A stretch of 64,000 nucleotides of DNA, from assembly GCA_964016885.1 (NCBI GenBank), contig OZ024742.1, forward strand, positions 109,740,001 through 109,804,000, written 5' to 3'. The DNA is from Eledone cirrhosa (Eukaryota). Below the pieces are notes generated by a model, which searched no databases, was not told where the DNA came from, and was given only the letters and a program-made list of their open reading frames with translations. Each line of letters opens with the position of its first letter. Position 1 is the first letter of the stretch. Both the position numbers and the translations under genes were made by a program. Shown in pieces: positions 38,359 through 64,000 of the stretch.

Positions 38359-39029
38359 GTGACTAAAGATTAAAACAAATGTAATATATTTACGGTTAGG
38401 GTTAAGAGACGAGCTAAACATACAGAGAATAAAAAAAATTGAACAGAGAAGATAAATATTGAGTAGCATGGATATTTATCACGAATATGTTCCAATAATT
38501 TTACAATGGCATGGATAGTGATTACAAATGTGTTCCAATAATTTGTCGAAATGTTCATCCTTAAATTCATACCGCCACATGGATTCGGTCAGATGGGAAT
38601 CAAGCAAATTTCTTGCTGTTCCTTTTTCTCTTTTGTTACGATTCTTAACATGTTTCCACAAGCATTCGATGTGGTTAGTTGTGGCAAATGTTACGGGATC
38701 AACAACATTCATAGAATTCACGGTCAAATGTTGATAGCCTAGCTGATTGAGCGTATCATAAGAGCGCCAGAGGTCCGAAATTATTGTGGTACCAGGCAAT
38801 ATACGATCTTGTATAATTGCTAAAAGCGTGTCTGCTGTGCGGTCTGCCACTGCCACTAAAATACATCTTCTGGTATCTCTTTCCAAAGTACCAAACACCT
38901 ACTGTGTTTTAACCTCCTGGCCAACATTATATTTTCTTCTGACGAAGGCGCTCTCGTCAATCTCAACAATTCGGTTTTGTGCCACATAATATTCGGCGCA
39001 TATTTCACGGCAAAAGTTACGCCAATCCG

Positions 39030-46057: not shown

Positions 46058-46348
46058 TTAAGCTGACATCAAAATCATGTCAGTTTTATAACTTGGGAAC
46101 TGTTGAGCCACTCTCCTTATATCTACAGGATAACTGAAGTTGGGATAAACAAACGACATTGCATCAAACAGGAAGTTGGTGTTCAGATGTTTCACAAAAT
46201 TTTCTTTTAAGGTTACATCTGGAGAATTCTTCAATTCATCACTCTTCCTTAATTGTTGTAAAAACAATCTTGGCTGCTGCTTAACATTGCAGGAGGAGTT
46301 CCACAGATAGATATTCAAGACATTGCACGCGGTGATGGCATCAAGACG
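46058..46348 (-). CDS. PINK1: PINK1 last exon, subdomain XI Arg and C-terminal extension
   Basis: TTTTCAG acceptor, phase 0; RLDAITACNVLNIYLW...ILMSA* (compare RPSARVAANVLHLSLW). Confidence 0.85.
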   Translation of the reverse strand, partial: RLDAITACNVLNIYLWNSSCNVKQQPRLFLQQLRKSDELKNSPDVTLKENFVKHLNTNFLFDAMSFVYPNFSYPVDIRRVAQQFPSYKTDMILMSA

Positions 46349-46817
46349 CTGAAAATCAGAAAATTCAGTAATTATTTCAAGGGTCAACAAAACAACAAAC
46401 ATTTCTACATCTTGAGTGTATCTTAGTTTTTAGAATAGGTACACCATATAACTGCAGGTTATATGAAGTGACTAAAAGGGTTGGCTTTAGGAAGTGCATT
46501 AGGCTATAAAATAGCACTTCAAAAAGTCCTGTCCAAACCCATGTCAGCACGGAAAATCGCCATTAACATCATGTTACATCCAATTTCACGCTGGCATGAG
46601 TTGGATGGGTTATGTTTCAAGGAAAAGCAGATGATGATGATGATATTGGTTTCTCTTCACAAGATTCAAAAACTCTGTTGCTAGAGGAAAAACAATGGCA
46701 TACTGTAACATCATCATCATCCTCTTAATGTTTTTACATTCATTAAGTTTAGTCCATCCCATGTCAGCATGGAAAAGCAAACATGGTTGTGTGGGAGGAG
46801 GAGATAATCAGATATAC

Positions 46818-46879
46818 CTGTGCAGGATCTTTAATCATCAGCCCATCAATCACTCTTTGGACCACAGCTGGAATGAAAT
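46818..46879 (-). CDS. PINK1: PINK1 exon, subdomains X-XI
   Basis: DFIPAVVQRVIDGLMIKDPAQ; phase 1 to 0, AG/GT. Confidence 0.85.
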
Positions 46880-47594
46880 CTGAAGATAGAGAGAAAGAAA
46901 CAACTAGTTTATTAGTTTTAATCAATAAAATATGTGATGTGATTTCATGATAGGCTATGTAGTTGTTCTTACAGCTCACACCTATGTATGTTTAGCTGGC
47001 CTCCTACAAGGTTGTATCTCATGAGCTTTCTTGGGTGTTTTAATGACAGGACCCCCAGTCCTATCATGTTGTTACTGCACATACCTACATAGGTTAAACT
47101 GGCCTCATACAAGGCTGCATTTCATAAGCTTCTTGATTGCTTTAATGAAAAGGGGCCCTGTCCTATCATGATGGAGGCTGAAGGTGTAAAATGATGGTGA
47201 AGTGTAGTGGTGTAACAATTATGTGTTCACAACAATATACACCACAGTTAGTTAGGTCTCCTAGAAAGAGAAGCTATCAACTACTTATATAGAACCTTTC
47301 CTGAATAAGAAAAAGTTTATTTTATTAGCATCTGCCACATACAAAGTCTACTTCTTTTCTGAATGGATACCTATAGAGAGTTCAACAGTTATCATCAACA
47401 ATAACAACTATGGCAATGATTGTGAGGACAATGATGATGATGATGAGGTGTATGATGTTGAAGATGATAATGTTTTGTCCCAACTGAGGTTGAGTCATTC
47501 AGTTTATACTGAAATGGTTTACTAAGTCTAGAAACAGAATTATTTCCACATGAAAACATTGAAGAGATATTTCAGTAAAATTTCAGGCACTTAC

Positions 47595-47730
47595 CAGGAA
47601 ATTCTTTCCTTTCTTTCGTTCTCAGGTCAAAGCAATCGGTAATGCCAAAGATCTCAAATGCCAAAATTCCAGCTGCCCAAAGATCAACTTTTGAACAATC
47701 TACCATTTCATAAGATTTAGCATCAGATAC
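47595..47730 (-). CDS. PINK1: PINK1 exon, subdomain IX
   Basis: VDCSKVDLWAAGILAFEIFG; AG/GTAAGT. Confidence 0.92.
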
Positions 47731-47793
47731 CTTTGTAAAGAGATTATAAATATGCCAGTACAAGAATAATACAATATAAATATCATACATATA

Positions 47794-47990
47794 CGAATGT
47801 GGGCTGAAAAGTTCATAGGCTGACTATGTAGGAGTGCTGCTAGATCTGTGAAATATTGCATACATTAATTTCAACTCTTCATATTAATAACTGCATTGTT
47901 TCTTTCCAGGGACTATGTTGAAAAATAAACCTCATTTGGTCATTCCATGAGTATCTTGGTCAGCCTATGAACTTTTCAGCTGAACCCCTG
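47794..47990. mobile_element. mariner-derived MITE
   Basis: Inverted repeat GCTGAAAAGTTCATAGGCTGAC / GTCAGCCTATGAACTTTTCAGC. Confidence 0.75.
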
Positions 47991-48727
47991 ACACAGAGTT
48001 ATTATAAACATAGACACACAAAACAAATATCTATGATATATATATATATATATAACTCATAATTTAAATATGACCACTCACTTCCTCCTCATCCTGTAAA
48101 CTTTCCCCTCATTATCTCAGTATCCCACCTTAGTCCTCCCACACTCACTCCCACTATCTCCACTCTACCTTGCACACCCAACAACTGCCAGCAGAGAAAG
48201 ACAAAGCCCCAAACATCCCTGCTTGTCCAACTCATTCCAGCATGGAGAGATAACCACCTTCATCCACTCCTCACACAGGTCAACAACATACAAAGATGGA
48301 TGCCTCAAACCAAGCCCTACCAACGTGTAAAGCCAGAAACACTCCACCTTGTCCCATGATAAAATGCTTGGTTAGGGGTCAGAAAGATGTCTTACTAGGA
48401 AGGTCATGCCAAAGCAAAAACAAAATGTATGAACTAGACATCTCCTGCCTGGCCAAGTCTCTGAGGATGACAGCCCATACTAAGACAACCTGACAGATTT
48501 CAGTCTTAAATTTAGAGTATGCATATGCCTTACTGGATAAACTGCAACTGTTGTGCCTACTGTCATACTACATGATGATCAGTAATGTGTGTATATATAT
48601 ATATAGGTGATATGATATGGACCTATAACTCCTGAGGGTTCCGTAGGGGCGCCATGTTGGCATACACCATTTCTTAGGGAATTTTAAAACCTGATGGAGC
48701 CTATGCCCTCTCCAGGCTTGAGTACAG

Positions 48728-48804
<77 letters not shown>

Positions 48805-49160
48805 TTGCATTGTTAAGAGGTTCGCTTAGCAACCACATGGTTCTGTGTTCTGTCCTATTGAATGGCACCTCTACCAAGTTGACCAATGCTTTGTTAGTGG
48901 AATTTGGTAAATGGAAACTGCAGAAGCCCATCATATATGTGTGTGTGTCTGTGTGAGTGTCTGTATTTACATTTTTGTATCTGTCTGTGTCTTGTAACTT
49001 GTACTTCTGTTCAGCAAAAAGAGCTTGATATTATATGTACTAGGCTTGAAAATGAAACAAGGGTTCATATGATTGACTTACTCAAGGCATGTCCACAGTC
49101 TAATGACTAAAAACAGTAAAATAATGATAAAATATATATCAAATCTAAAAGGTAACAAAC

Positions 49161-49279
49161 CTCTGGGGCCTGGAAGACAGCATTCCCATCCTTGGCCTGA
49201 TGATATGGCACCATCATACCAGAAGATTCTCCAGTGTAGCAACAACCAAAATCTGAGATGACAAGATGAGGAGAAACAT
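49161..49279 (-). CDS. PINK1: PINK1 exon, DFG to APE activation segment (absent from the ORF track)
   Basis: DVSPHLVISDFGCCYTGESSGMMVPYHQAKDGNAVFQAPE; phase 1 to 0, AG/GT. Confidence 0.93.
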
Positions 49280-50304: not shown

Positions 50305-53300
50305 CTAGCAGAGGTACCCGGCGTTGCCCGGTATAACTTTCAATGGAGTAGTCGTTTGAATGAACCGAAAGACTTCCGTTAAATACGACTATAAAAGTAA
50401 CAATTTATAGGTGTTGGCCTTTGAACGTTCACTTTGAAATATCTCTGCAGTGGTGCTGCCAGCAAAAACGAATCTGATGGTAACAATTTAAAGTTGGTGG
50501 CCCTAAAGAGAGCCTTGGATCGTTCAATCTTAAAAGTCTCAGCCGCGGTGCTGCCAGCAAAGACAAATCCAGCGGTAACAATTTATAGTTGGTGGCCCTG
50601 AAGAGGACCTTTTAACATTCGCTTTGAAATATCTCAGCACTGGTGCTGCCAGCAAAGATGAATCCGATGCTAACAATTTAAACTTGGTGGCCCTGAAGAG
50701 GGCCTTGGATCGTTCACTCTAAAAACTCCCAGTGGCAGAGCTGTCAGCAAAGACGACTCCTATTAGAGGTGGTGGCCCTTAAAAAGTCCGTCACACCACT
50801 TTGGTGTGTCGTATTTGCTTTGCTTGTTATTTGAGATTGTAACCTAGAAAAGCATGTAACAGTCAGTGGCCACAAAAACGGCCTTGGCAAGATCACGCTG
50901 GAATGTCAAAAAAATGTGTAGATAAGATGTAGGTAAAAGTAGATTAATTAGGTTAAAACTATGGAACATTGATAGTAAAGCGTAATAGCAACATATAAAT
51001 GCGGAAAACAGAAACATTGAACATTTATAACGTATAGCAAAAGCAACCTCAGAGGACTATGTGGTATTGTCAAAAGGACAAAAATAGCACACGGATACAG
51101 CAAATGTAAGCACTTATACAAAAAAAAAACAGCGATTACTTGTTGGCGGATGGGGTACCTACAAAACTTCCTTATAGACTATATTTTGGGCTTTCTCGCG
51201 AGTTGCAAAAGCAAATAGGTTATGTCGGCTCCCCACTCGAGAGCAGCCAACATATAGTTGACCATGGCAGAAGCACGGTTCTTCTAATTTAAGCCCTACG
51301 ACCGTCACCGTCTGACCCTGTGATTTGTTAATCGACATGGCGAAACTGAGCCGGAGAGGGAATTGCAGCCTTCTGAATGTGAAAGGAATGTCTTTACCGG
51401 ATGGAATGAGAGGTATCCTTAGTATGAAGACAGTATCCCCCTTACCACATCCTATAAGTATTGTGCCTCAATAACATGAGGCACTGCCTTTTGGAGGACC
51501 AGACGCGTGCCTTTGGATTTCCAAATTCCTGAGGAGCATGACAGGAGCACCTTTCTTAAATCGCAGTAAGTGTGGTGGCAATCCGGGAGGGTCTAGAGAG
51601 TTAAGAAATTCTGTGGGGTAATTAACAAATTCGTCCGTATCAGCCATAGAGTCAAAGGACATGCAGGTTTCCAGGCAAGCACAGCGTAGTTGGAGGAGGG
51701 GTCGTAGTTAAAGGCCTTCAACAACCATCGTGAATTGCAAGTCCTAGAAATGCCACGTAACGATGATCGCCGCTGTTCACTTTGCAGAAGTCGGCCATGT
51801 CGTTGCTCTATGGTTTCAGTATTTCATGCAGCAGTAGTGGCAGCGGCGTCCCTGCTTCATCGAACGGCGCGTCATCCTTCATCCTCTCGAGCGCGAGCAG
51901 CAGCAGTCGCAGCAGCATCTTTGTTCCGTCGAAGTTCACGCCGACTGTCATCCTCCTCCGCTCTTGCAGCTGCCGTCTGCACAGCATTATGTGAGAGCCT
52001 GATCGGTGGATTGGCAGTATCGGTAGAGAGTCGGACACCATGCTTTGAAGCATAGAGTTACATCCCTTTATGATCTGAGTTCAAATCCCGCCGAGGTTAA
52101 CTTTGCCTTTCATCCTTACGGGGTCGATAAAATAAAGTACCAGTAATGTACTGGGTAATTGCTGGCCTTGTGCCTAAAATAGAAACAATTATGTGAGAGC
52201 CTGATCGTAGTCGCATTTACATCTTTGGTGAAACACCTTCGCTTAGACCTACTTGCATCATTAGATAATCTACCAATTAAAGTTCTTTTCTTGGGTGGCA
52301 TTGTTTTTAGAAAATTAACGAGGGAGAACGATAAATAGTGGACAAATAACGTTTAAGTAAGCAAATCTAAACACAGATATAAATTGTGAAAAAATGTGAT
52401 AAATCTATGTGGTCTGAGAAAGTGGGTATGTTTTGCAAGATTTTGTGTACCAGTCAAATTTCAGGTTTTAAGTTAGGCGCAACGCAGCATACGGACTACC
52501 TGTGATAAAGGAAATTAAATAGTGTGGCTACAGTGGTAGGTATATAAGTGTCAGTATGTTTGTTCAGTTCAAACATAGCAATAAGTAAGTACTAACCATT
52601 GAAAGGATACAGGCAAAAATGGCCGAAAAATCACAGCATGATAAACTGGAACCTTATGACCATAAACACATTAACTAAACGTCCTTTAAGGTGACAAATG
52701 TTGAAGAAGCATGCATTTCAGAAACATTGGGTAGCTTATGCAAGTACACATGTAAAAAAAACCTACCACTTGTCAAAAGCCAAAAAAGAAGTGTCGGACC
52801 GATATAAATAGGAGTGATTTCGCTTAATGAACAGCACTCGAGTTCTCTGATTAGTTAGAAAATACAAATAAGTGTGATGAAATCTACTGAACACAACTCA
52901 CTGATGTGTGGTTGGCCAGAGGTTGCCATTTCGCACTTAATTGAGGTGCAATTAAACGGGGGAGACAACCGGGTCCAAAAACTAATCAATCATTCGCACA
53001 GTTTAGGCATGAGTGTGAAATAGCACAATCCACATACAGTAGGCATTAAAATTTACACCTGGGTTAAATCGCGCTTTCTTGGTTAGGAGTGTGAAATGAC
53101 GCCAAAGTTCAAGGAAAAAAATTTAACTCCCCATTCCGCACTTAATTGTGGTGCAATTACACGGGGGAGACAACCGGGTGCAAAATTAAATTCAATCATC
53201 ATAAAGTTAACTAAACAAACTAAAGTAAAGTCAGGGGGATTTAAAAATTTGCTACGCCATTTGTAGGACATGAGTAACCGATGCGTCAACTTCCGTTTAA

Positions 53301-54669: not shown

Positions 54670-54848
54670 CTGAAAAATCATCCAATGGAACATCTTCCAA
54701 GAGAATATTATTAGGTTTGAGATCACGGTGAACTATTTGATGGTTAATCATGTGTCGAATACCTTCCAGCAATTGTGTGAACAACATCACTCTCACTCGT
54801 ATAGAAGGGTTTCTTGTTTGTAGGTATTCATTCAATGTCATCTTGTAT
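54670..54848 (-). CDS. PINK1: PINK1 exon, catalytic loop
   Basis: YKMTLNEYL..LFTQLLEGIRHM..IVHRDLKPNNILL; AG/GTGAG. Confidence 0.95.
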
Positions 54849-55727
54849 CTAGCAAGTAAAAACAAACAGTCAATTCTTTAATATTTCAGTTATTAAAAAG
54901 AATTTCGTTTTTCATGTCAACCTTATTTTTAGAGTTGGACATCATCATATCATCTAATGTCTGTTTTCCCTGCTAGGAAGTATTTGACAACAATCAGTGC
55001 TTAAACAGAGCCTCCGACCTGCAGGTGGACCAGGGACCTAACATACGATCCCGCACTCTACCAATGCATTTTGTTGTGGTACCAACAATAGGGAAATTAT
55101 CATGTTTTTGGCATAGCTAAAGCAACTTCCCAAACTTTTATTTAGCAAGCTTTCTATGACTGGATGCCCTTCCTCTCATCAATGACTTTACAGAGTGTAC
55201 TGAGTAGTCGTTTATTGTGTAGATCATCAATACGAGAGAGGTTGTCATATCTATGGTGAAACCGATCCTATCAATTTACAGAGTGTAACATCTAATTAAT
55301 ATTTAATATTGACATCTACAGTAGAAGACCAAGGGAGATTTGGGTAGACATGGTGCACTTCACAAAGGAGATGTCAAGGAAAACAAATGAGGCTGAGCTG
55401 GAAAAGAACTATTCAACCCATGCCAACATAGAAAAATAGATGTAAAATAAGGCTGATGATGTTCACTACATTTCAATTGGTTTGATCTGTGACAGTCATC
55501 AGGTGTCTATTCTTAGGATGTGAACATAGTAGCTGACTGGATTTGAACTAAGAACTTTTATTTCCAAACAAAATTTAATAATGCTCCAATCCACGTGTAG
55601 TTTTAAAAGAACATTTTTACTGCTAAAAATAAGGTAAATAAAAAAAAAAAAAGTGCCTTTGGTTCTACAATGCAAATTTATTTCTTTTAAAGTGTTTATA
55701 TATATCTAAAAACCTTCCATTATAATT

Positions 55728-56120
55728 GGATTGGCAGTATCGGTAGAGGGTCTAACGCCATGATTTGCAGCAAAGAGTTACGGCCCTTTATGGTCTGAGT
55801 TCAAATCCCACCGAGGTTTACTTTGCCTTTCATCCTTACGGAGTCGATAAAACAAAGTACCAGTAATGCACTGGGTAATTGCTGGCCTTGTGCCAAAAAG
55901 TAGAAACAATTATAATTTTAAGTAAGAATAGGCCGTGAATTGGCAGTATCGGTAGAGGTTCGGATGCCATACTTTGCAACATAGAGTTACGACCCTTACG
56001 ATCTGAGTTCAAATCCCGACGAGGTTAACTTTGCCTTTCACCCTTATGGGGTTGATAAAATAAAGTACCAGTAATGCACTGAAGTAATTGCTGGCCTTGT
56101 GCAAAAAGTAGAAACAATTA
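55728..56120 (+). mobile_element. Two tandem SINE family A copies
   Basis: Copies at 55728-55911 and about 55935-56120; the second is flanked by the duplicated ATAATTTTAAGTAAGAATA. Confidence 0.9.
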
Positions 56121-56404
56121 TAATTTTAAGTAAGAATATTTGTTAAGTTCCAAATACCAGCTTAATAATGAGAAAGTTTGCTAACCTATTCAAAATTCTC
56201 AATTATTTTCAAAATCATACATAGTGTCTTTCATTTAGAACATGGTAATGAAAGTGTTAAATATCTACATTTGAATTCTTCAGCTTTTATACTCCTTTAA
56301 GTTGATAAAATAAATACTAGTCACAAAATGAACGATTATTGATCCAGTCAGCCCAACTACTAATCTGTTAAATTGTTAATTAGAATACAAAGATAGAAAA
56401 ATAC

Positions 56405-56581
56405 CTTTTCATTATCAAACATAGTGTCATACTACGGCCGAAACTCTCAGGATATAGATTCTGTGGCAAGGCAGATTGAAAAAACTCAGCTGACTCTGGC
56501 ATGTCCGGAAGACTTCCATGAAATACGTTGTATATCGTTACAATGTTAGGGTGGGGAGGAAGTCTGCTCTTCATGAGAGTA
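56405..56581 (-). CDS. PINK1: PINK1 exon, insertion 3 and hinge
   Basis: LPPHPNIV...SALPQNLYPESFGRSMTLCLIMKR, a PINK1-specific region; phase 2 to 2. Confidence 0.95.
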
Positions 56582-57050: not shown

Positions 57051-57195
57051 CTGTCAGGTGTATCATCTTGGCCACTGATATGAAGACTAGGAACTGCTTC
57101 ATTCCAAAACTTGCTTAACAGTTCATTATAATTACTTTCCACATAGTAATTGAACAGACATTTGCTGACAAGTTCCACATGTTCCGTGCTTTTTG
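57051..57195 (-). CDS. PINK1: PINK1 exon, beta3 Lys, autophosphorylation Ser and alphaC
   Basis: ELVSKCLFNYYVESNYNELLSKFWNEAVP (compare insect LAVKMMFNYDVESNS..ETVP); phase 1 to 2. Confidence 0.92.
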
Positions 57196-57642
57196 CTGTA
57201 CAAACAGCTAAAAGTATAGAATATCATTGTAAAAGAAAAAAAGTATTGACATATATATGTCTGTGTGTAATTGTGACTGTTATCATTAACATCATTTTTA
57301 TGTCTACTTTGGTGCATTTGTGGCATTTAGGCAAGCAGATCTTTCTATATATGAATATGTGTATGCACATATGTGCATGTGTGTTATTTAGGCAACAACT
57401 GTTTTGATGATGATCATGTGCGTATGTATATATGCAATTACATATGTGCATGTGTGGTATTCAGGCAACAGCTATTTATGTGTGTGTATGTGTCATTCAC
57501 ATACGTGAATGTGTAGTATTTAGGCAACAGCTATTTATGTTTGTGTATGTTTGATTTACATGCATGTGAAAAGAAGAACAATGAAGATAGAAAAAAAGAA
57601 AAGCTCCTAATAATAAGAATAAGATATATAAACTGTCCTTAC

Positions 57643-57702
57643 CTTCTTGGTTTTGGTTCTCATCTAAAGTCGATTCACTCATATTGGAAACATCACTTTC
57701 TG
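57643..57702 (-). CDS. PINK1: PINK1 60-nt exon, copy C (AESDVSNMSESTLDENQNQE)
   Basis: CAG|CAG acceptor, G|GTAAGG donor, phase 1-1, open frame. Inclusion inferred. Confidence 0.75.
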
Positions 57703-57780
57703 CTGTAATACAACAGATAAGGACATTATGGATTTCATTAGACCAACATTATCGATTAAATTGGACTAATATTATGTATT

Positions 57781-58750
57781 GTATCAGATCAACATAGTGT
57801 GGTACACCAGATCAACAGTGTGGTACACCAGATCAACATTGTGTGGTACACCAGATCAACAGTGTGGTACACCAGATCAACATTGTGTGGTACACCAGAT
57901 CTACATTGTGTGGTACACCAGATCTACATTGTGTGGTACACCAGATCAACATTGTGTGGTACACCAGATCAACATTGTGTGGTACACCAGATCCACATTG
58001 TGTGGTACACCAGATCAACATTGTGTGGTACACCAGATCAACATTGTGTGGTACACCAGATCAACATTGTGTGGTACACCAGATCTACATTGTGTGGTAC
58101 ACCAGATCTACATTGTGTGGTACACCAGATCAACATTGTGTGGTACACCAGATCAACATTGTGTGGTACACCAGATCAACATTGTGTGGTACACCAGATC
58201 AACATTGTGTGGTACACCAGATCTACATTGTGTGGTACACCAGATCTACATTGTGTGGTACACCAGATCAACATTATGTGGTACACCAGATCAACATAGT
58301 GTGGTACACCAGATCAACATAGTGTGGTACACCAGATCTACATTATGTGGTACACCAGATCTACATTATGTGGTACACCAGATCTACATTATGTGGTACA
58401 CCAGATCAACATTGTGTGGTACACCAGATCAACATTATGTGGTACACCAGATCAACATTATGTGGTACACCAGATCAACATTGTGTGGTACACCAGATCA
58501 ACATTGTGTGGTACACCAGATCTACATTGTGTGGTACACCAGATCTACATTGTGTGGTACACCAGATCTACATTGTGTGGTACACCAGATCAACATTGTG
58601 TGGTACACCAGATCTACATTGTGTGGTACACCAGATCTACATTATGTGGTACACCAGATCTACATTATGTGGTACACCAGATCTATATTATGTGGTACAC
58701 CAGATCAACATTGTGTGGTACACCAGATCAACATTGTGTATTTCACCAGA
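57781..58750. repeat. 23-bp minisatellite, about 42 copies (ATTGTGTGGTACACCAGATC[A/T]AC)
   Basis: Direct tandem repeat with no spacers; the ORFs over it are artefacts. Confidence 0.97.
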
Positions 58751-59344
58751 CCAAAATTGTGTATTAAACCATACAAACAATACATACTGTACCAGAACAT
58801 GATCTATTGCATTAAACCAACATTCAAGACAAAATCTTGAGGAGTAACCCTTTTCATACCAAGCCACCTGAAATTGATCCTGGTTCTATGATAGTTTTAA
58901 GTACATTTGTTAAGTTATGCACCAAAAACCAGCTTAATTAATTGCAAACTATATGCAGTGTCTTTCATTAGAAATATGGTAAGTGTTTATACTTATCTAA
59001 AAGCCTTCCATCATAATTTTATGTAAGAACCTTTGTTATAAACATCAGCTTAATAATGAGAAAGTTAATATTACTAAATCCCTCCAAATTTTTGATTATA
59101 TTCAAAATCATTTAAAAACCATAGGCAGTGTCTTTCATTAGAAATATGGTAACAAAAAGATTAAGGAAGTTTCCAATAGACTGGATTCCCAACCAGCCTC
59201 TTGCAGTTGAGAGGAGGTACTAGTGATCTTGGGTCACCCATGCCACTGGATTTGTTTCTATCACCATGAAATGGTACTAGTGTGGTTACTGCTGTTGTAA
59301 TGTTGGAATACTCCCACTTCTGTAGTTTCCTCATTCAAATCATA

Positions 59345-59832
59345 TCTAAACTATAATAAAGTAAGAAGCGCGAGACTGCGTACGGTTTATAATTTTTTAT
59401 TCCCTTAGTAAAATAAGTTGGATTACTTTGAATAAATAATGAATGAATATTACATAATTTATCTACTAAATTTCATGGCTGTTTATTAAATATATTTTAT
59501 TACTTATTTAAAGATTGACTTCTCTAAAATTTTCAAATGTCAACACTTCCGGTTAGCGATCGTTTAAATAAATATTCATATATTTCTGTCACTAATTTTC
59601 TCCTAATGTAATTTATATATAATATCGTCTTTTTTTAATGTATCATGGATTACATTACTGATTAAATAAGACAGTGTAACGCAGTCTTCGTTCAATTTCT
59701 ATGAATTATATATTGTCAATTATGATTTTATTTGATGTATCATATCTACATGTATATATACCTGCATATAATATCAATATACACACTACACATGCTAGCA
59801 GAAAACCACCCGAAGGGTGGTTTTTCTGCTAG
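59345..59832 (+). mobile_element. Short non-autonomous Helitron-like element with a long terminal hairpin
   Basis: A|TCTAAACTATAATAAAG start; CTAGCAGAAAACCACCC-GAA-GGGTGGTTTTTCTGCTAG|T end. Confidence 0.6.
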
Positions 59833-59856
59833 TCTTGAATAATTGACAGTCCTTAC

Positions 59857-59916
59857 CTTCTTGAGTTTCGTTTCCACCCAAAGTGGACTCACCCATATTG
59901 GAAATATCGCTTTCTG
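59857..59916 (-). CDS. PINK1: PINK1 60-nt exon, copy B (AESDISNMGESTLGGNETQE)
   Basis: CAG|CAG acceptor, G|GTAAGG donor, phase 1-1, open frame. Inclusion inferred. Confidence 0.7.
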
Positions 59917-60003
59917 CTGCAAAACAACAAATAAGTATATTATGCAAGGAAAATAAATAAATTTTTGTTGTTGTTTAGCCCCAAAATAATAAACAGTCCT
60001 TAC

Positions 60004-60063
60004 CTTCCTGAGTTTGGTTTTCATCCAAAGTAGACTCATCCATATTGGAAATATCACTTTCTG
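60004..60063 (-). CDS. PINK1: PINK1 60-nt exon, copy A (AESDISNMDESTLDENQTQE)
   Basis: CAG|CAG acceptor, G|GTAAGG donor, phase 1-1, open frame. Inclusion inferred. Confidence 0.75.
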
Positions 60064-61407
60064 CTGCAAAACAAATAAGTATATTATGTAAGGAAAAGAA
60101 GTAAATTTTTGTTGTTGCTTAGCCCCAGGCGAGCTCTGATTAGGCAGACCTATTATCAAAGTTATTCCAACCATGACCATCCAATCTTATTTTCATTGGG
60201 ATCTTTTAGCAGCGTTCATTCTCTCGCAAGCATTTGGGTCAGGTCTCTGGTTAGAGGATAACTTCCACCCTTCTTCCCATCAGTCTCGGAGACCTTGCAA
60301 AGGGTTATGAGTACTGCCCTCCCTCCTGAGTAAATGATTAAAAAAAACTTGTATTTTCAAACACCAGAACAAGAACATTGGTGTATGTGGCGGCTATGAT
60401 CATACTGTGTTGGACCTCCGTTGGTTCCAATGATGAATGTTCCAGGTGTTCAAACAACAGAACTGTCTGTTCCTGAACTTAGGCAAATGTCTGAGCATTT
60501 AACAGACATGTGTATCCTTAACATAGTTCTCAGGGAGATTCGGCATATTGTAGTGTGTAACAAGGCTAGTCCTTTGAATTACAGGTATACCTCATTTTTG
60601 CCAGCTGAGTGGACTGAAGCAAAATGAAATAAAGTATCTTGTTCAAGGATACATGCCGCCAATAATCAAATTCATGAACATGATTGTGAGCTAAACACAG
60701 TAACCACTAAGTTACATGACTATGGTCACACTACAACATATGAAAAATATTATGGTTCCAATGTTGTGTGATACAAAAGATGTTACTTATAATAAACATG
60801 TGGACTAGTGGTTTAGGTGTTGGACTCACAAGGTCCCAAATTGGAATGTGTGCTGTATTCGTGGGCAAGATGCTTCATTTCATCTTTCTTTTCATAATAA
60901 AACTGGGCCCCTATCATTAAAACAAAACCTATAAGATGCAGCTTCATAGGAGGCCAGCTAAATCTGTATATGTTGGACACAAGATACCATGCCATGAGAT
61001 CAAACATGAAACCTAATGATTGCAAATCAAACTTCCTAACTATTTAGCCATGCTGCAAAAAGATACTTTTGCTGTACCACTCTAGTACTAGTAGCAGTTG
61101 TGTTCTGATTTGGAGAAGGATGGGCTCTGCCAAGTTTAAAATGCCTCAGACATACTGTGTGTCAAGACACCCCAGAGTCTCTGCCAAGTTTAAAATGCCT
61201 AAGACATGCTATGTTTCAGGACAGCACCCGTTTGATGCCATCTGGAGTTAAGTGACTTTTACTTTATCTTAGGTAGGGGGGGGAGCTGTGGTAATAACAA
61301 CAACAACATTATGTATACCTACCATGTTCGTCTCTATGGCATCTAGCAGTCATCTTCGTAGTAGCAGTAGTAAAAGTAGCAACAACAACAATATTATGTA
61401 TACTTAC

Positions 61408-61555
61408 CATGTTCATCTGTACGACATCGAACTGAAAACACAGCACCATTGCACCCTTTGGCAAGGAACTGCAAGAACTCAATGTTTGAATAGTTGTCAG
61501 GAACATTCACTCCATTCAATGGATCTGTTTTAGACGACTGTTTCTCATAGGAACT
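61408..61555 (-). CDS. PINK1: PINK1 exon 2, glycine-rich loop
   Basis: SSYEKQ...IEFLQFLAKGCNGAVFSVRCRTDEH; TAG acceptor, GTAAGT donor, phase 0 to 1. Confidence 0.92.
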
Positions 61556-62026
61556 CTACAAAGTAACAAAGACACTAGTGAACAATGAAAGAAGTAAACG
61601 AACTCAGTTTCAAATGAAATATACTGTTTGCAGTGTTTCAGGTAATTTTACTAAACTGGGAAATAGCAAAAGAAAATTAATAAAAAAGGCTTGTACTAAA
61701 AATGGCAGAAGGGTTTAACATTTTTAACATAAAATTAGGATTCTGCATTTAAAAAAAAAAACTCTTTTCTTACTTCTTTTGTTTGAAGCCTCCTCCTCCC
61801 CCTCTCTCTCTCTCTCTCTTTTGCTATTCCCCACGAACTAATAGGGTAGCTTCTCTACATGATCTTTCGAAATACTAGAAATAGTAGCCAAAAATTAAAC
61901 AGTTCATGGGTGGGGAAAAAGTTAAGTATGGGAGGGGGAAGAATCGCAAAACAGAAAATTCCGGAAAAATAACCTAATAAATAAGTTATGGCCATTTACG
62001 TGTGGTAGGGTATAATTCATATCAAT

Positions 62027-62521
62027 TTGGAACCATCTGGGTTGTCCAGAAGTGACGGCAAAAGACCTGACGGTCTTACCCTGTGCCCCTGGTCAAGAAG
62101 CAGGTGCCTTGTCTGTGACGTCACTGTTAGTGACTCCTTTGCTCCTTCCCACATCCTGGATGCTGCGGTTAGGACGAGAGCCACAGCTTCTGAAGCCAAG
62201 CGGAGTAAGACCCTCAAATACTCTGATCTGTCGGCCAGCTACATTTTTCAGCCTGTGGCTTTCGAGATGTTTGGGGGAGTCGGGCCGCTGACTGCGAGGT
62301 TCCCTTCCTCACTGGCGGCTCGCCTAATAGAGGTGACTGGCGAATCTCGCGAGGGTGCTTGGCTGTTTCAGCGCATCAGCCTCGCCATCACCCGAGGCAA
62401 CGCTGCGAGTGTGCTGGCTTGCCTCAAAATCATTAGAGAGGTTGCCCAGTACTCGCGACGTTGCTGTCTTTTGCTCTGGTGTTGGCTCCGTTGTTCACTC
62501 CTTCTTCTACATTTTCTTTAA
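62027..62521 (+). mobile_element. CRE-like non-LTR retrotransposon 3' fragment, restriction-like endonuclease domain
   Basis: EPSGL..DGKRPDGLTL.PW...DVTV.D..KTLKY..FQPVAFE.FG..LFQRISLAITRGNA. Confidence 0.8.
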
Positions 62522-62559
62522 TATTGTAGCATTGAAGGAATATATCTTTCATTATATCG

Positions 62560-62739
62560 TGGATTGGCAGTATCGGTAGAGGGTCGGGCGTCATGATTTG
62601 AGTACTGGGCAACCTTTATGATCTGAGTTCAAATTCCACCGAGGTTAACTTTGCCTTTCATCCTTACGGGATCGATAAAATAAAGTACCAGTAATGCACT
62701 GAGATAATTGTTGGCCTGGTGCCAAAAGTAGAAACAATT
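62560..62739 (+). mobile_element. SINE family A copy
   Basis: Family consensus match; flanked by duplicated ATTATATC. Confidence 0.88.
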
Positions 62740-63098
62740 ATATCATCCTTTGTAGTGCTACCGAGACATTTGTAATGTTATTTATGTATATATTTAAAAC
62801 ATATTTGTTATGTTATTCTACTGTAAATTTATTTATATGCTGTTTATATTTTCATTCTGTAAGAATAATGTAAACTGATTTATACTAATAGTGTAAACTT
62901 ATATTAATAATGATTTCTTTACTTCTTTATAATAATTTTTTTTGTGATTTTAAAAGACTTTATTGACATTTAGTAGCATAAAATATACGATTTAGCACTG
63001 TTGATATAATCTGTATACAGGACACAAACTTATTTCATTAGACTCCCCATAGATGTGTGATAAAGCAAAAAGCGAAAAAAACAATACTTTTAACTCAC

Positions 63099-63479
63099 CT
63101 GTAAATCCGAGATAATTTCGCCTAATTGCTGGGGACTGTTGTTATAAGGATGTCTATTATGAAAAGAGAAACCTAACAGAGCAAAAGTAGGAAGGTAAGT
63201 AGAACGAGAAAACCTGGGTGCTTTTGAAAACCTTGAGGCCAAATTTTGGCCCCAAAACCTAAAAGCGGCCCTGCGTCTCAGATCAGCCACGAAGTTGTTG
63301 GTACAGTAACGATATATCCATCGTGTTAGGGGAGTCCTGCATTTAGTAATGGAGGAAATCAGTGGCTTCTGGTGGCGTATTAGCCGAGTGAATTGACTAA
63401 ACCTCCAAAATGTACTGGACTGCTGTACTAAGTGATTCCTCACATTTAACAGTTGCTTGAACAGACCCCGAAAGGCCAT
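63099..63479 (-). CDS. PINK1: PINK1 exon 1, mitochondrial targeting sequence and TM-like segment
   Basis: Arg-rich, acid-poor N-terminus; DLRRRAAFRF and PTFALLG motifs like invertebrate PINK1; CAG|GTGAGT donor in phase 0. Confidence 0.9.
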
Positions 63480-64000
63480 TTTGACGCTACCCTAATCTCT
63501 ACAACAGAAATAGGGAGAATGTGTGTGTTTGGTGTTCTGATGTCGTGGGAACACGCCCTAGACCTACAGTCTACCTTTGCTTAACTAATCTGCACAACTT
63601 TAATACAGATGCCCTCTGCTATTATAACAAAACAAGGTCACGATTTTACGCAATTCAATTTGGTTTTCATAAAAACAAGAAATTAAGTGCTTAAAATATT
63701 TATTTTAAAAGCTATCGAGTAAGCATGAATTTTGACATAGCATAACGCTTAAATTATTGACAAATAAAATTTAAACCAATAGTTGAAAAGTTGTTAAAAG
63801 TGCCGTGCTATCGGAAGTAATAATTTTCTCCTGGATTAATATTGTTGACAATGTAGATTTATCAAAACAAACACTACGTCGCAGACAAATTACCCCAGAT
63901 ATATTCTATATAGATAAATCATTGCATTTCTCATATAGGGGGGATGTCCACTCCTAGCTGAAAATATCACAATACGAATTTGATTAATGGTGAAATTGAA

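Follow-up and report, generated by a model that had tools for sequence, protein, structure and literature searches.

Three paralogous 60-nt exons are joined in one spliced contig within insertion 1 of an octopod PINK1 gene

The PINK1 gene on the minus strand of the window, by which is meant the whole 64,000-nt stretch of Eledone cirrhosa DNA that was analysed, carries three paralogous 60-nt exons (copies A, B and C) in insertion 1 (Ins1), and all three follow exon 2 in a single contig of the spliced run X1. The explanation favoured here, with moderate confidence, is that A, B and C are spliced together, with two lineage-specific tandem duplications of an ancestral exon having expanded Ins1 from roughly 44 residues to roughly 84, default inclusion of the copies and a decayed motif in a tolerant loop. 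Of the readings weighed below, default joint inclusion ranks first, a working FIP200/ATG8 tether second, a combinatorial module third and mutual exclusion or pseudo-exons last.

That the gene is PINK1, as the initial annotation had claimed, is borne out by a PINK1-type N-lobe and by structure and protein matches. A Gly loop, a beta3 Lys followed by the activating Ser, Ins2 and Ins3, HRD, DFG and a C-terminal extension are all found. With the exon containing the Ins2/Ins3 region as query, 12/12 PDB matches were PINK1, the top matches of the protein search were the named Octopus and Argonauta PINK1, and the genome search gave 1 match among 4 candidates, indicating a single PINK1 gene. Nine exons without the three copies give a stop-free frame of 545 aa when the acceptor of the beta3-Lys exon is set at 57195. 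The previously proposed range of 545-605 aa was reproduced with this acceptor, but ortholog alignment prefers 57207, which makes the protein about 609 aa with three copies. Because 57195 leaves a four-residue gap relative to the orthologs, 57207 is the preferred boundary, and from this alignment the acceptor probably lies there, 12 nt upstream. A one-copy model (copy C only, acceptor 57207) has 569 aa, the same length as both Octopus proteins, and is identical to O. bimaculoides PINK1 at 438/568 positions. The features are as follows.

63099-63528, minus strand: PINK1 exon 1, with ATG at 63479 and 5′ UTR to at least 63528, joined to exon 2 in the run X1 contig.
61408-61555, minus strand: exon 2, with the Gly-rich loop AKGCNGAVF, ending in phase 1 (gene model and X1 contig).
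60004-60063, minus strand: copy A, AESDISNMDESTLDENQTQE, with joints 61408/60063 and 60004/59916 and canonical ends in run X1.
60041-60061, minus strand: FIR-like core of copy A, with Met at the last position (motif profile).
59917-60003, minus strand: A-B intron of 87 nt, passed over by the X1 contig; its retention would bring in an in-frame stop.
59857-59916, minus strand: copy B, AESDISNMGESTLGGNETQE, the most diverged copy, 11/19 to the Octopus unit (X1 contig and ortholog alignment).
59838-60127, unstranded: 147-nt tandem duplication (acceptor region, exon and donor) behind A and B (repeat analysis, 89% matches).
57643-57702, minus strand: copy C, AESDVSNMSESTLDENQNQE, nearest to the single ortholog unit (15/19), at the X1 contig end, first 30 letters 30/30.
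57051-57207, minus strand: beta3-Lys/alphaC exon, in which KCLFNYYVES holds the counterpart of the activating Ser; its acceptor is placed at 57207 by ortholog alignment, and 57195 would also be in frame.
56405-56581, minus strand: exon with the Ins2/Ins3 region and hinge (PDB, protein and genome searches).
54670-54848, minus strand: catalytic-loop exon, HRDLKPNN.
46058-49279, minus strand: four 3′ coding exons (DFG, APE, C-lobe and C-terminal extension) at 49161-49279, 47595-47730, 46818-46879 and 46058-46348 (gene model).

The octopod PINK1 is itself divergent in the exons 54670-54848 and 49161-49279, with HRDLKPNN against HRDLKSDN in insects and a shorter activation segment. Long branches lead to the cephalopods and octopods in the tree.

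Three paralogous 60-nt segments were confirmed at these coordinates, each with a CAG/CAG acceptor, an AAG/GTAAGG donor, phase 1-1 and an open frame, and computation showed that any subset of zero to three copies stays in frame, as had been described. The nucleotide identities are 53/60 for A/B, 50/60 for A/C and 48/60 for B/C (blastn E 1e-10 to 1e-17), and a DNA search of the genome with the copies gave only these 3 matches. One contig in each of three DNA runs, possibly from the assembly's own sample, spans 59809-60532 with 0 differences, so the A-B pair did not arise through misassembly. The copies differ from one another by 8 synonymous and 7 replacement changes, giving an omega of about 0.2-0.3 (P 0.002-0.03 depending on transition bias), and this synonymous excess indicates translated exons. 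Computed from these 15 changes, the constraint on replacements exceeds what would be expected of a neutral spacer, which counts against a loop that is simply tolerated; a cruder test, in which third positions made up 7/14 of the variable columns, was not significant (P 0.15).

One 19-residue unit was found at the same position in each of the three octopod orthologs, O. bimaculoides, O. sinensis and Argonauta, with exon boundaries inferred from proteins and not from DNA, and among 50 candidates there were no short octopod fragments with other copy numbers. With a single copy in 3/3 octopod orthologs the triplication is likely lineage-specific, and the zero-copy form is not the baseline. The comparison of copy number that the initial annotation had proposed for other cephalopods was realised in part, giving one copy in Octopus (two proteins) and Argonauta and three here. 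Since C is nearest to the ortholog unit (15/19, against 14 for A and 11 for B), C would be the original, a first duplication would have given the ancestor of A and B, and the 147-nt tandem duplication would then have given A and B themselves. The frame would have been kept because every copy came with splice sites of its own and with a length that is a multiple of three.

The runs available were four from one study, none of them recorded as RNA, and X1, of unrecorded kind and tissue, was the sole spliced one. X1 was taken as RNA on the grounds that its contig shows splicing at canonical sites and leaves the introns uncovered; a processed gene copy as the origin of the contig is unlikely, as the genome search gives no further match. 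The contig has 762 letters at a depth of 98.7 and joins exon 1, exon 2, A, B and then C, all letters being accounted for as 4+430+148+60+60+60. Both the exon 2-A joint, which is the junction 61408 to 60063 that had been put forward as a check, and the A-B joint across the 87-nt intron have canonical ends. Of the last 60 letters after B, the first 30 match C at 30/30 against 26/30 for A and for B. The segments are thus real exons, joined as exon 2-A-B-C in one spliced contig.

In this one sample, the same contig contradicts the mutually exclusive use of A and B that had been considered, as it lacks the 87-nt intron and contains all three copies together. That the copies are mutually exclusive exons, or one true exon accompanied by two decaying pseudo-exons, is very improbable: the short distance of only 87 nt between A and B, the strict YTRAY branch motif that was not found in this intron (a donor-to-branch-point distance below 50 nt would be typical of mutually exclusive clusters), though the intron is spliced in X1, and the 3 Gly replacements in B would fit such an explanation, but A-B and B-C are joined in one contig, the copies contain no stops or frameshifts, and there is the excess of synonymous changes.

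A combinatorial cassette would have tissues or stress states include zero to three copies, together with one-residue NAGNAG variants, and so tune the length and charge of Ins1. All subsets keep the frame and CAGCAG is present at the acceptor in 3/3 copies. The ortholog proteins, with their 19-residue unit, match the distal AG and X1 uses the proximal one, so that the tandem acceptor has shifted in evolution. Exons of this kind also tend towards surface loops and disordered regions (PMC5740500, available in part), and a stress-switched duplicated exon is described in an oyster mitochondrial gene (PMC5589949, in part). Against such a cassette, the X1 contig is unbroken from exon 1 to C, the only joints in 59790-61620 in X1 are exon 2-A and A-B, both of the all-in form, and A, B and the start of C all take the proximal CAG. 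Neither copy skipping nor use of the distal AG was seen in the X1 contigs, which represent one sample and can drop minor forms, since they derive from graph simplification (10.1101/2024.07.30.605881, in part) in which minor skipping forms may be lost. The strong donor AAG/GTAAGG is common to the three copies, whose acceptors have a pyrimidine content of 65-70% and are as pyrimidine-rich as most others in the gene (60-90%), and neither member of the Octopus cluster is named as an isoform. The variable module of the initial annotation therefore stands as to frame but only the all-in form was seen, in 1/1 spliced runs, and its NAGNAG variants stand as to the layout in all copies and the fit of the distal AG to ortholog proteins, but only the proximal AG appears in X1. 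Regulated combination of the copies is accordingly regarded as unlikely.

The X1 contig breaks off precisely where C ends, 60 letters past B, which is a point against the favoured explanation. Because no 30-mer is repeated in the modelled transcript, a branch at the junction of C with the beta3 exon is possible, and the stop may mark branching or variation there. A duplicate of the exon 2 3′ end and donor lies 85 nt downstream (61291-61343 against 61376-61428, 85% over 53 nt, GT kept); it would shift the frame if used, and the X1 contig takes the original donor. Under default joint inclusion, the preferred reading, the copies would be included as a matter of course and not in regulated combinations.

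The position of the segments in Ins1, between the Gly-loop strand and the beta3 Lys, and the acidic character of the loop agree with what had been claimed, and the loop is in addition predicted to be disordered. In the AlphaFold model of the O. sinensis ortholog pLDDT is <50 at 177-204, between the strands 165-172 and 209-214, and the three repeats have a FoldIndex of -0.50, the catalytic exon one of +0.14. Counted between the Gly-loop motif and the beta3 Lys, Ins1 has 84 residues here versus 43-45 in three octopods; six squid/cuttlefish-type proteins have 197-212 aa and the snail Nucella has 236, and Ins1 spans 11-261 aa in 182/264 PINK1-like proteins (82 not measurable), 88 of them with at least 80 aa. 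The length as such is unremarkable because of this span in other PINK1s and because a beetle PINK1 is nearly without Ins1. Tribolium PINK1 is active with almost no Ins1, and human PINK1 without Ins1 (180-209) is described as a 'striking contrast' to the inactive Ins3 deletion (PMC5679756, in part). The extra 40 residues would be tolerated and catalysis unaffected, since the surface loop that Ins1 forms between beta2 and beta3 is predicted to be disordered and varies about 20-fold in length among animals. Ins1 lies near the dimer interface in low-resolution models of a 2026 preprint (10.64898/2026.08.19.745768, in part), and given this reported proximity its length may not be neutral. Ins1 swaps gave no better soluble expression (10.1101/2023.12.23.573181), the role of Ins1 is poorly known according to a 2021 review (PMC8616241, in part), and the available parts of PMC10798554 and PMC12669725 contain nothing on Ins1.

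Of the 182 other Ins1 loops measured, only 3 contain an internal repeat with an identity of 10/15 or more. The Ins1 of P0158 and P0194 have exact 15/15 internal repeats with periods of 60 and 11, which by their sequences are independent Ins1 duplications in other lineages.

The unit encoded by the copies resembles a motif that is stronger in the Ins1 of relatives, and an adaptive explanation builds on this resemblance. Each exon would be a working low-affinity FIR/ATG8-binding motif, and the triplication would restore by avidity a multivalent array like that of squid and snail PINK1, directly recruiting FIP200 (ULK complex) or ATG8 to damaged mitochondria. We consider this improbable, though second in rank. 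On its side is a repeated [DES][DES]D[IF]x[IV][LI], with a consensus continuing SE, in long acidic Ins1 loops of non-insect invertebrates. The pattern [DES][DES][IVFWY]xx[LIV] occurs 63 times in 24 long acidic loops versus 18.5 in shuffles, while the reversed pattern is not enriched in the same loops (21 versus 18.5). With the last hydrophobic residue one place nearer, the pattern is enriched (50 versus 18.1), and one place further it is depleted (4 versus 17.7). In the 20 non-redundant loops, which are the 24 less four near-identical cuttlefish rows, 30/37 anchors of the form [DES][DES]D[IFV], picked blind to what follows, carry L/I/V at +3 (background 18%). At least two motifs are present in 16/20, compared with a mean of 3.3 and a maximum of 8 in 500 shuffles. 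These counts concern a pattern chosen after sight of the sequences, in relatives that are not independent, which weighs against the adaptive explanation.

In a quick tree the stricter motif is present in 17/68 rows, namely cephalopods, one gastropod and several deep branches, and is absent from all 32 rows of the group with all named insects and from all 6 rows of the vertebrate-containing group. The PINK1 structures found here come from these motif-free insect and vertebrate groups. Motif-bearing Ins1 rows are P0009-P0014, P0027, P0029, P0074, P0133, P0135, P0136, P0148, P0154 and P0158, with up to 5 motifs per loop.

Published FIR peptides are similar, which again favours the adaptive explanation. 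Those of CCPG1 (SDDSDIVTLEPPK, PMC7946963), NAP1 (EDDICILNHEK) and NDP52 (ENEEDILVVTTQG, both PMC8363153) and ATG16L1 (EQDDDIEVIVDET, PMC12513996) bind the FIP200 Claw and ATG8 proteins (these three sources and PMC5791736, all in part). The FIR consensus is an acidic or phospho residue, I/L/V/F/Y/W, then L/I/V three residues on, and the dimeric FIP200 Claw accommodates two peptides (PMC7946963, in part), a further point for the adaptive explanation. As sequences, the relatives' motif and these FIP200/ATG8-binding FIR peptides match closely, and the chance that FIP200/ATG8 truly recognise the relatives' motif as a ligand is put a little below even. A SUMO-interacting pattern is enriched in relatives as well (23 versus 6.2 shuffled), which counts against the adaptive explanation. 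SUMO-interacting motifs have a [VI]x[VI][VIL] core with flanking acidic residues, and the window cores ISNM and VSNM do not fit this core.

Another word was seen in Dipteran-type PINK1 (e.g. P0051, P0028 and P0025), where [RK][VI]xF is conserved in long Ins1 loops; we take it to resemble the PP1-docking RVxF motif. It has 42 matches in 40/164 loops versus 3.9 shuffled and only 2 versus 0.9 among 62 representatives, the excess being due to many related flies.

A profile of 51 non-octopod instances (median 12.8, minimum 5.0) gives the Octopus unit ESDISNLSE, a full match, a score of 13.3. For the window copies the scores are 4.5-5.6, which exceeds 99.5% of random 9-mers, of which only 0.46% reach 4, yet lies at the bottom of real instances. 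In favour of function, ESD[IV]SNM is kept in all three window copies, and the acidic-then-hydrophobic step of the FIR is present as D-I in A, D-I in B and D-V in C. Against it, the L/I/V of the FIR consensus is absent from the last core position in 3/3 window copies, which have Met there and Asn just before; both Octopus orthologs have Leu, and Met at +3 occurs in 0/37 anchors of relatives. The aromatic first core position of a canonical LIR/AIM is also absent from the window copies, which have Ile or Val, and Phe is found in 11/37 of the relatives' anchors. Argonauta is without the motif (best score -5.5), which makes it dispensable in at least one octopod, and what ties the squid motif to the octopod unit is 8/13 identities (E 0.005-0.02 in a small set). 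The window motif is likely a weakened remnant of the FIR/LIR-like motif of relatives; its copies fail the strict FIR test and may work like weak FIRs. That the triplicated Met copies still act as FIP200/ATG8 ligands is, judged from their letters, doubtful.

Complex prediction for GABARAP with O. sinensis Ins1 170-204 gave a score of 0.02 against a mark of 0.34 and is evidence neither way; the GABARAP was taken from a metagenome contig and shares 97% identity with the 66 residues encoded by the genome's own exon. The FIP200 Claw was not found in the genome, with 0 matches to PF10377 and only coiled-coil-type matches to PF04108. Under default joint inclusion the loop would offer an acidic tether with three short ESD[IV]SNM motifs.

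The locus is rich in repeats. A 23-nt minisatellite at 57785-58762 (42.7 copies, 95% matches) ends about 80 nt upstream of the copy C acceptor. High-copy repeats were found in PINK1 introns at 62009-62521 (plus strand), 62555-62742 and 58951-59833, the last forming the block between B and C, and an element of about 190 nt in the introns is also present at 52007, 55727 and 55935. The stretches 58951-59152 and 55690-56248 were considered as a larger gene duplication, which was dropped as the stretch is a high-copy repeat. A 170-aa frame in the intron repeats had no Pfam match and presumably resembles a retrotransposon end. The 5.4-kb PINK1 intron holds a broken Pif1-type helicase fragment at 51159-51707 (minus strand, PF21530, E 1.6e-12), likely a Helitron remnant, and an ISXO2-like transposase fragment was found at 38479-38898 (minus strand, PF12762, E 1.4e-15).

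Taken alone, the triplication is a modest example of how exon duplication can lengthen a loop. It marks out one unit of Ins1, a region of poorly known role, and tracing this unit into relatives led to a repeated, direction-specific motif like FIP200/ATG8-binding peptides. Should the motif bind, the damage sensor of some animals would be linked straight to the initiation of autophagosomes and Ins1 would have a function open to testing, for which squid (at least 3 motifs), Octopus (1), this genome (3 weakened) and Argonauta (0) form a natural series of motif counts. In a bolder version, PINK1 of many non-insect invertebrates would be its own mitophagy receptor, with Ins1 motifs recruiting FIP200 and ATG8 without adaptors of the OPTN/NDP52 type; octopods would have cut the array to one exon, and the present lineage, after the Leu-to-Met weakening, would have rebuilt a three-motif array with a valency adjustable by splicing. 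Read from sequence, this scenario seems unlikely to us.

In the literature searched, where subscription journals were mostly outside the scope and supplements were excluded, nothing was found on exon duplication in cephalopod PINK1 or on FIR/LIR motifs in Ins1, and alignments in those journals and supplements may show the motif. The loop corresponds to PINK1 insertion 1 as known from human (180-209) and from the loop remnant in Tribolium (PMC5679756) in its position, variable length and predicted disorder, and differs from other PINK1 Ins1 in being built from three paralogous exons. It is like H2d-H2a of vertebrate COE/EBF (PMC2394523, in part) in that a duplicated exon is included beside the original and lengthens the protein, and unlike it in having three copies, in a disordered loop and not a helix, apparently in one lineage, with joint inclusion known from one sample. 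Mutually exclusive tandem-duplicated exons (PMC5740500 and PMC9741552; oyster AOX exon 10, PMC5589949; all in part) share with the window equal-length homologous tandem exons and one short intron between them. Unlike those, the window copies are joined in one transcript and lie within a loop; 87% of structure-mapped human cases of mutually exclusive exons have an end in a secondary-structure element (PMC5740500, in part). FIR and non-canonical ATG8-binding motifs of CCPG1, NAP1, NDP52 and ATG16L1, in the partly available sources cited above, have the same order of acidic/Ser lead-in, Asp, Ile/Phe and, after two further residues, a hydrophobic one; they too lie in disordered segments, often more than once per protein, whereas the window candidate lies inside a kinase domain, ends in Met preceded by Asn, and is known here as a sequence.
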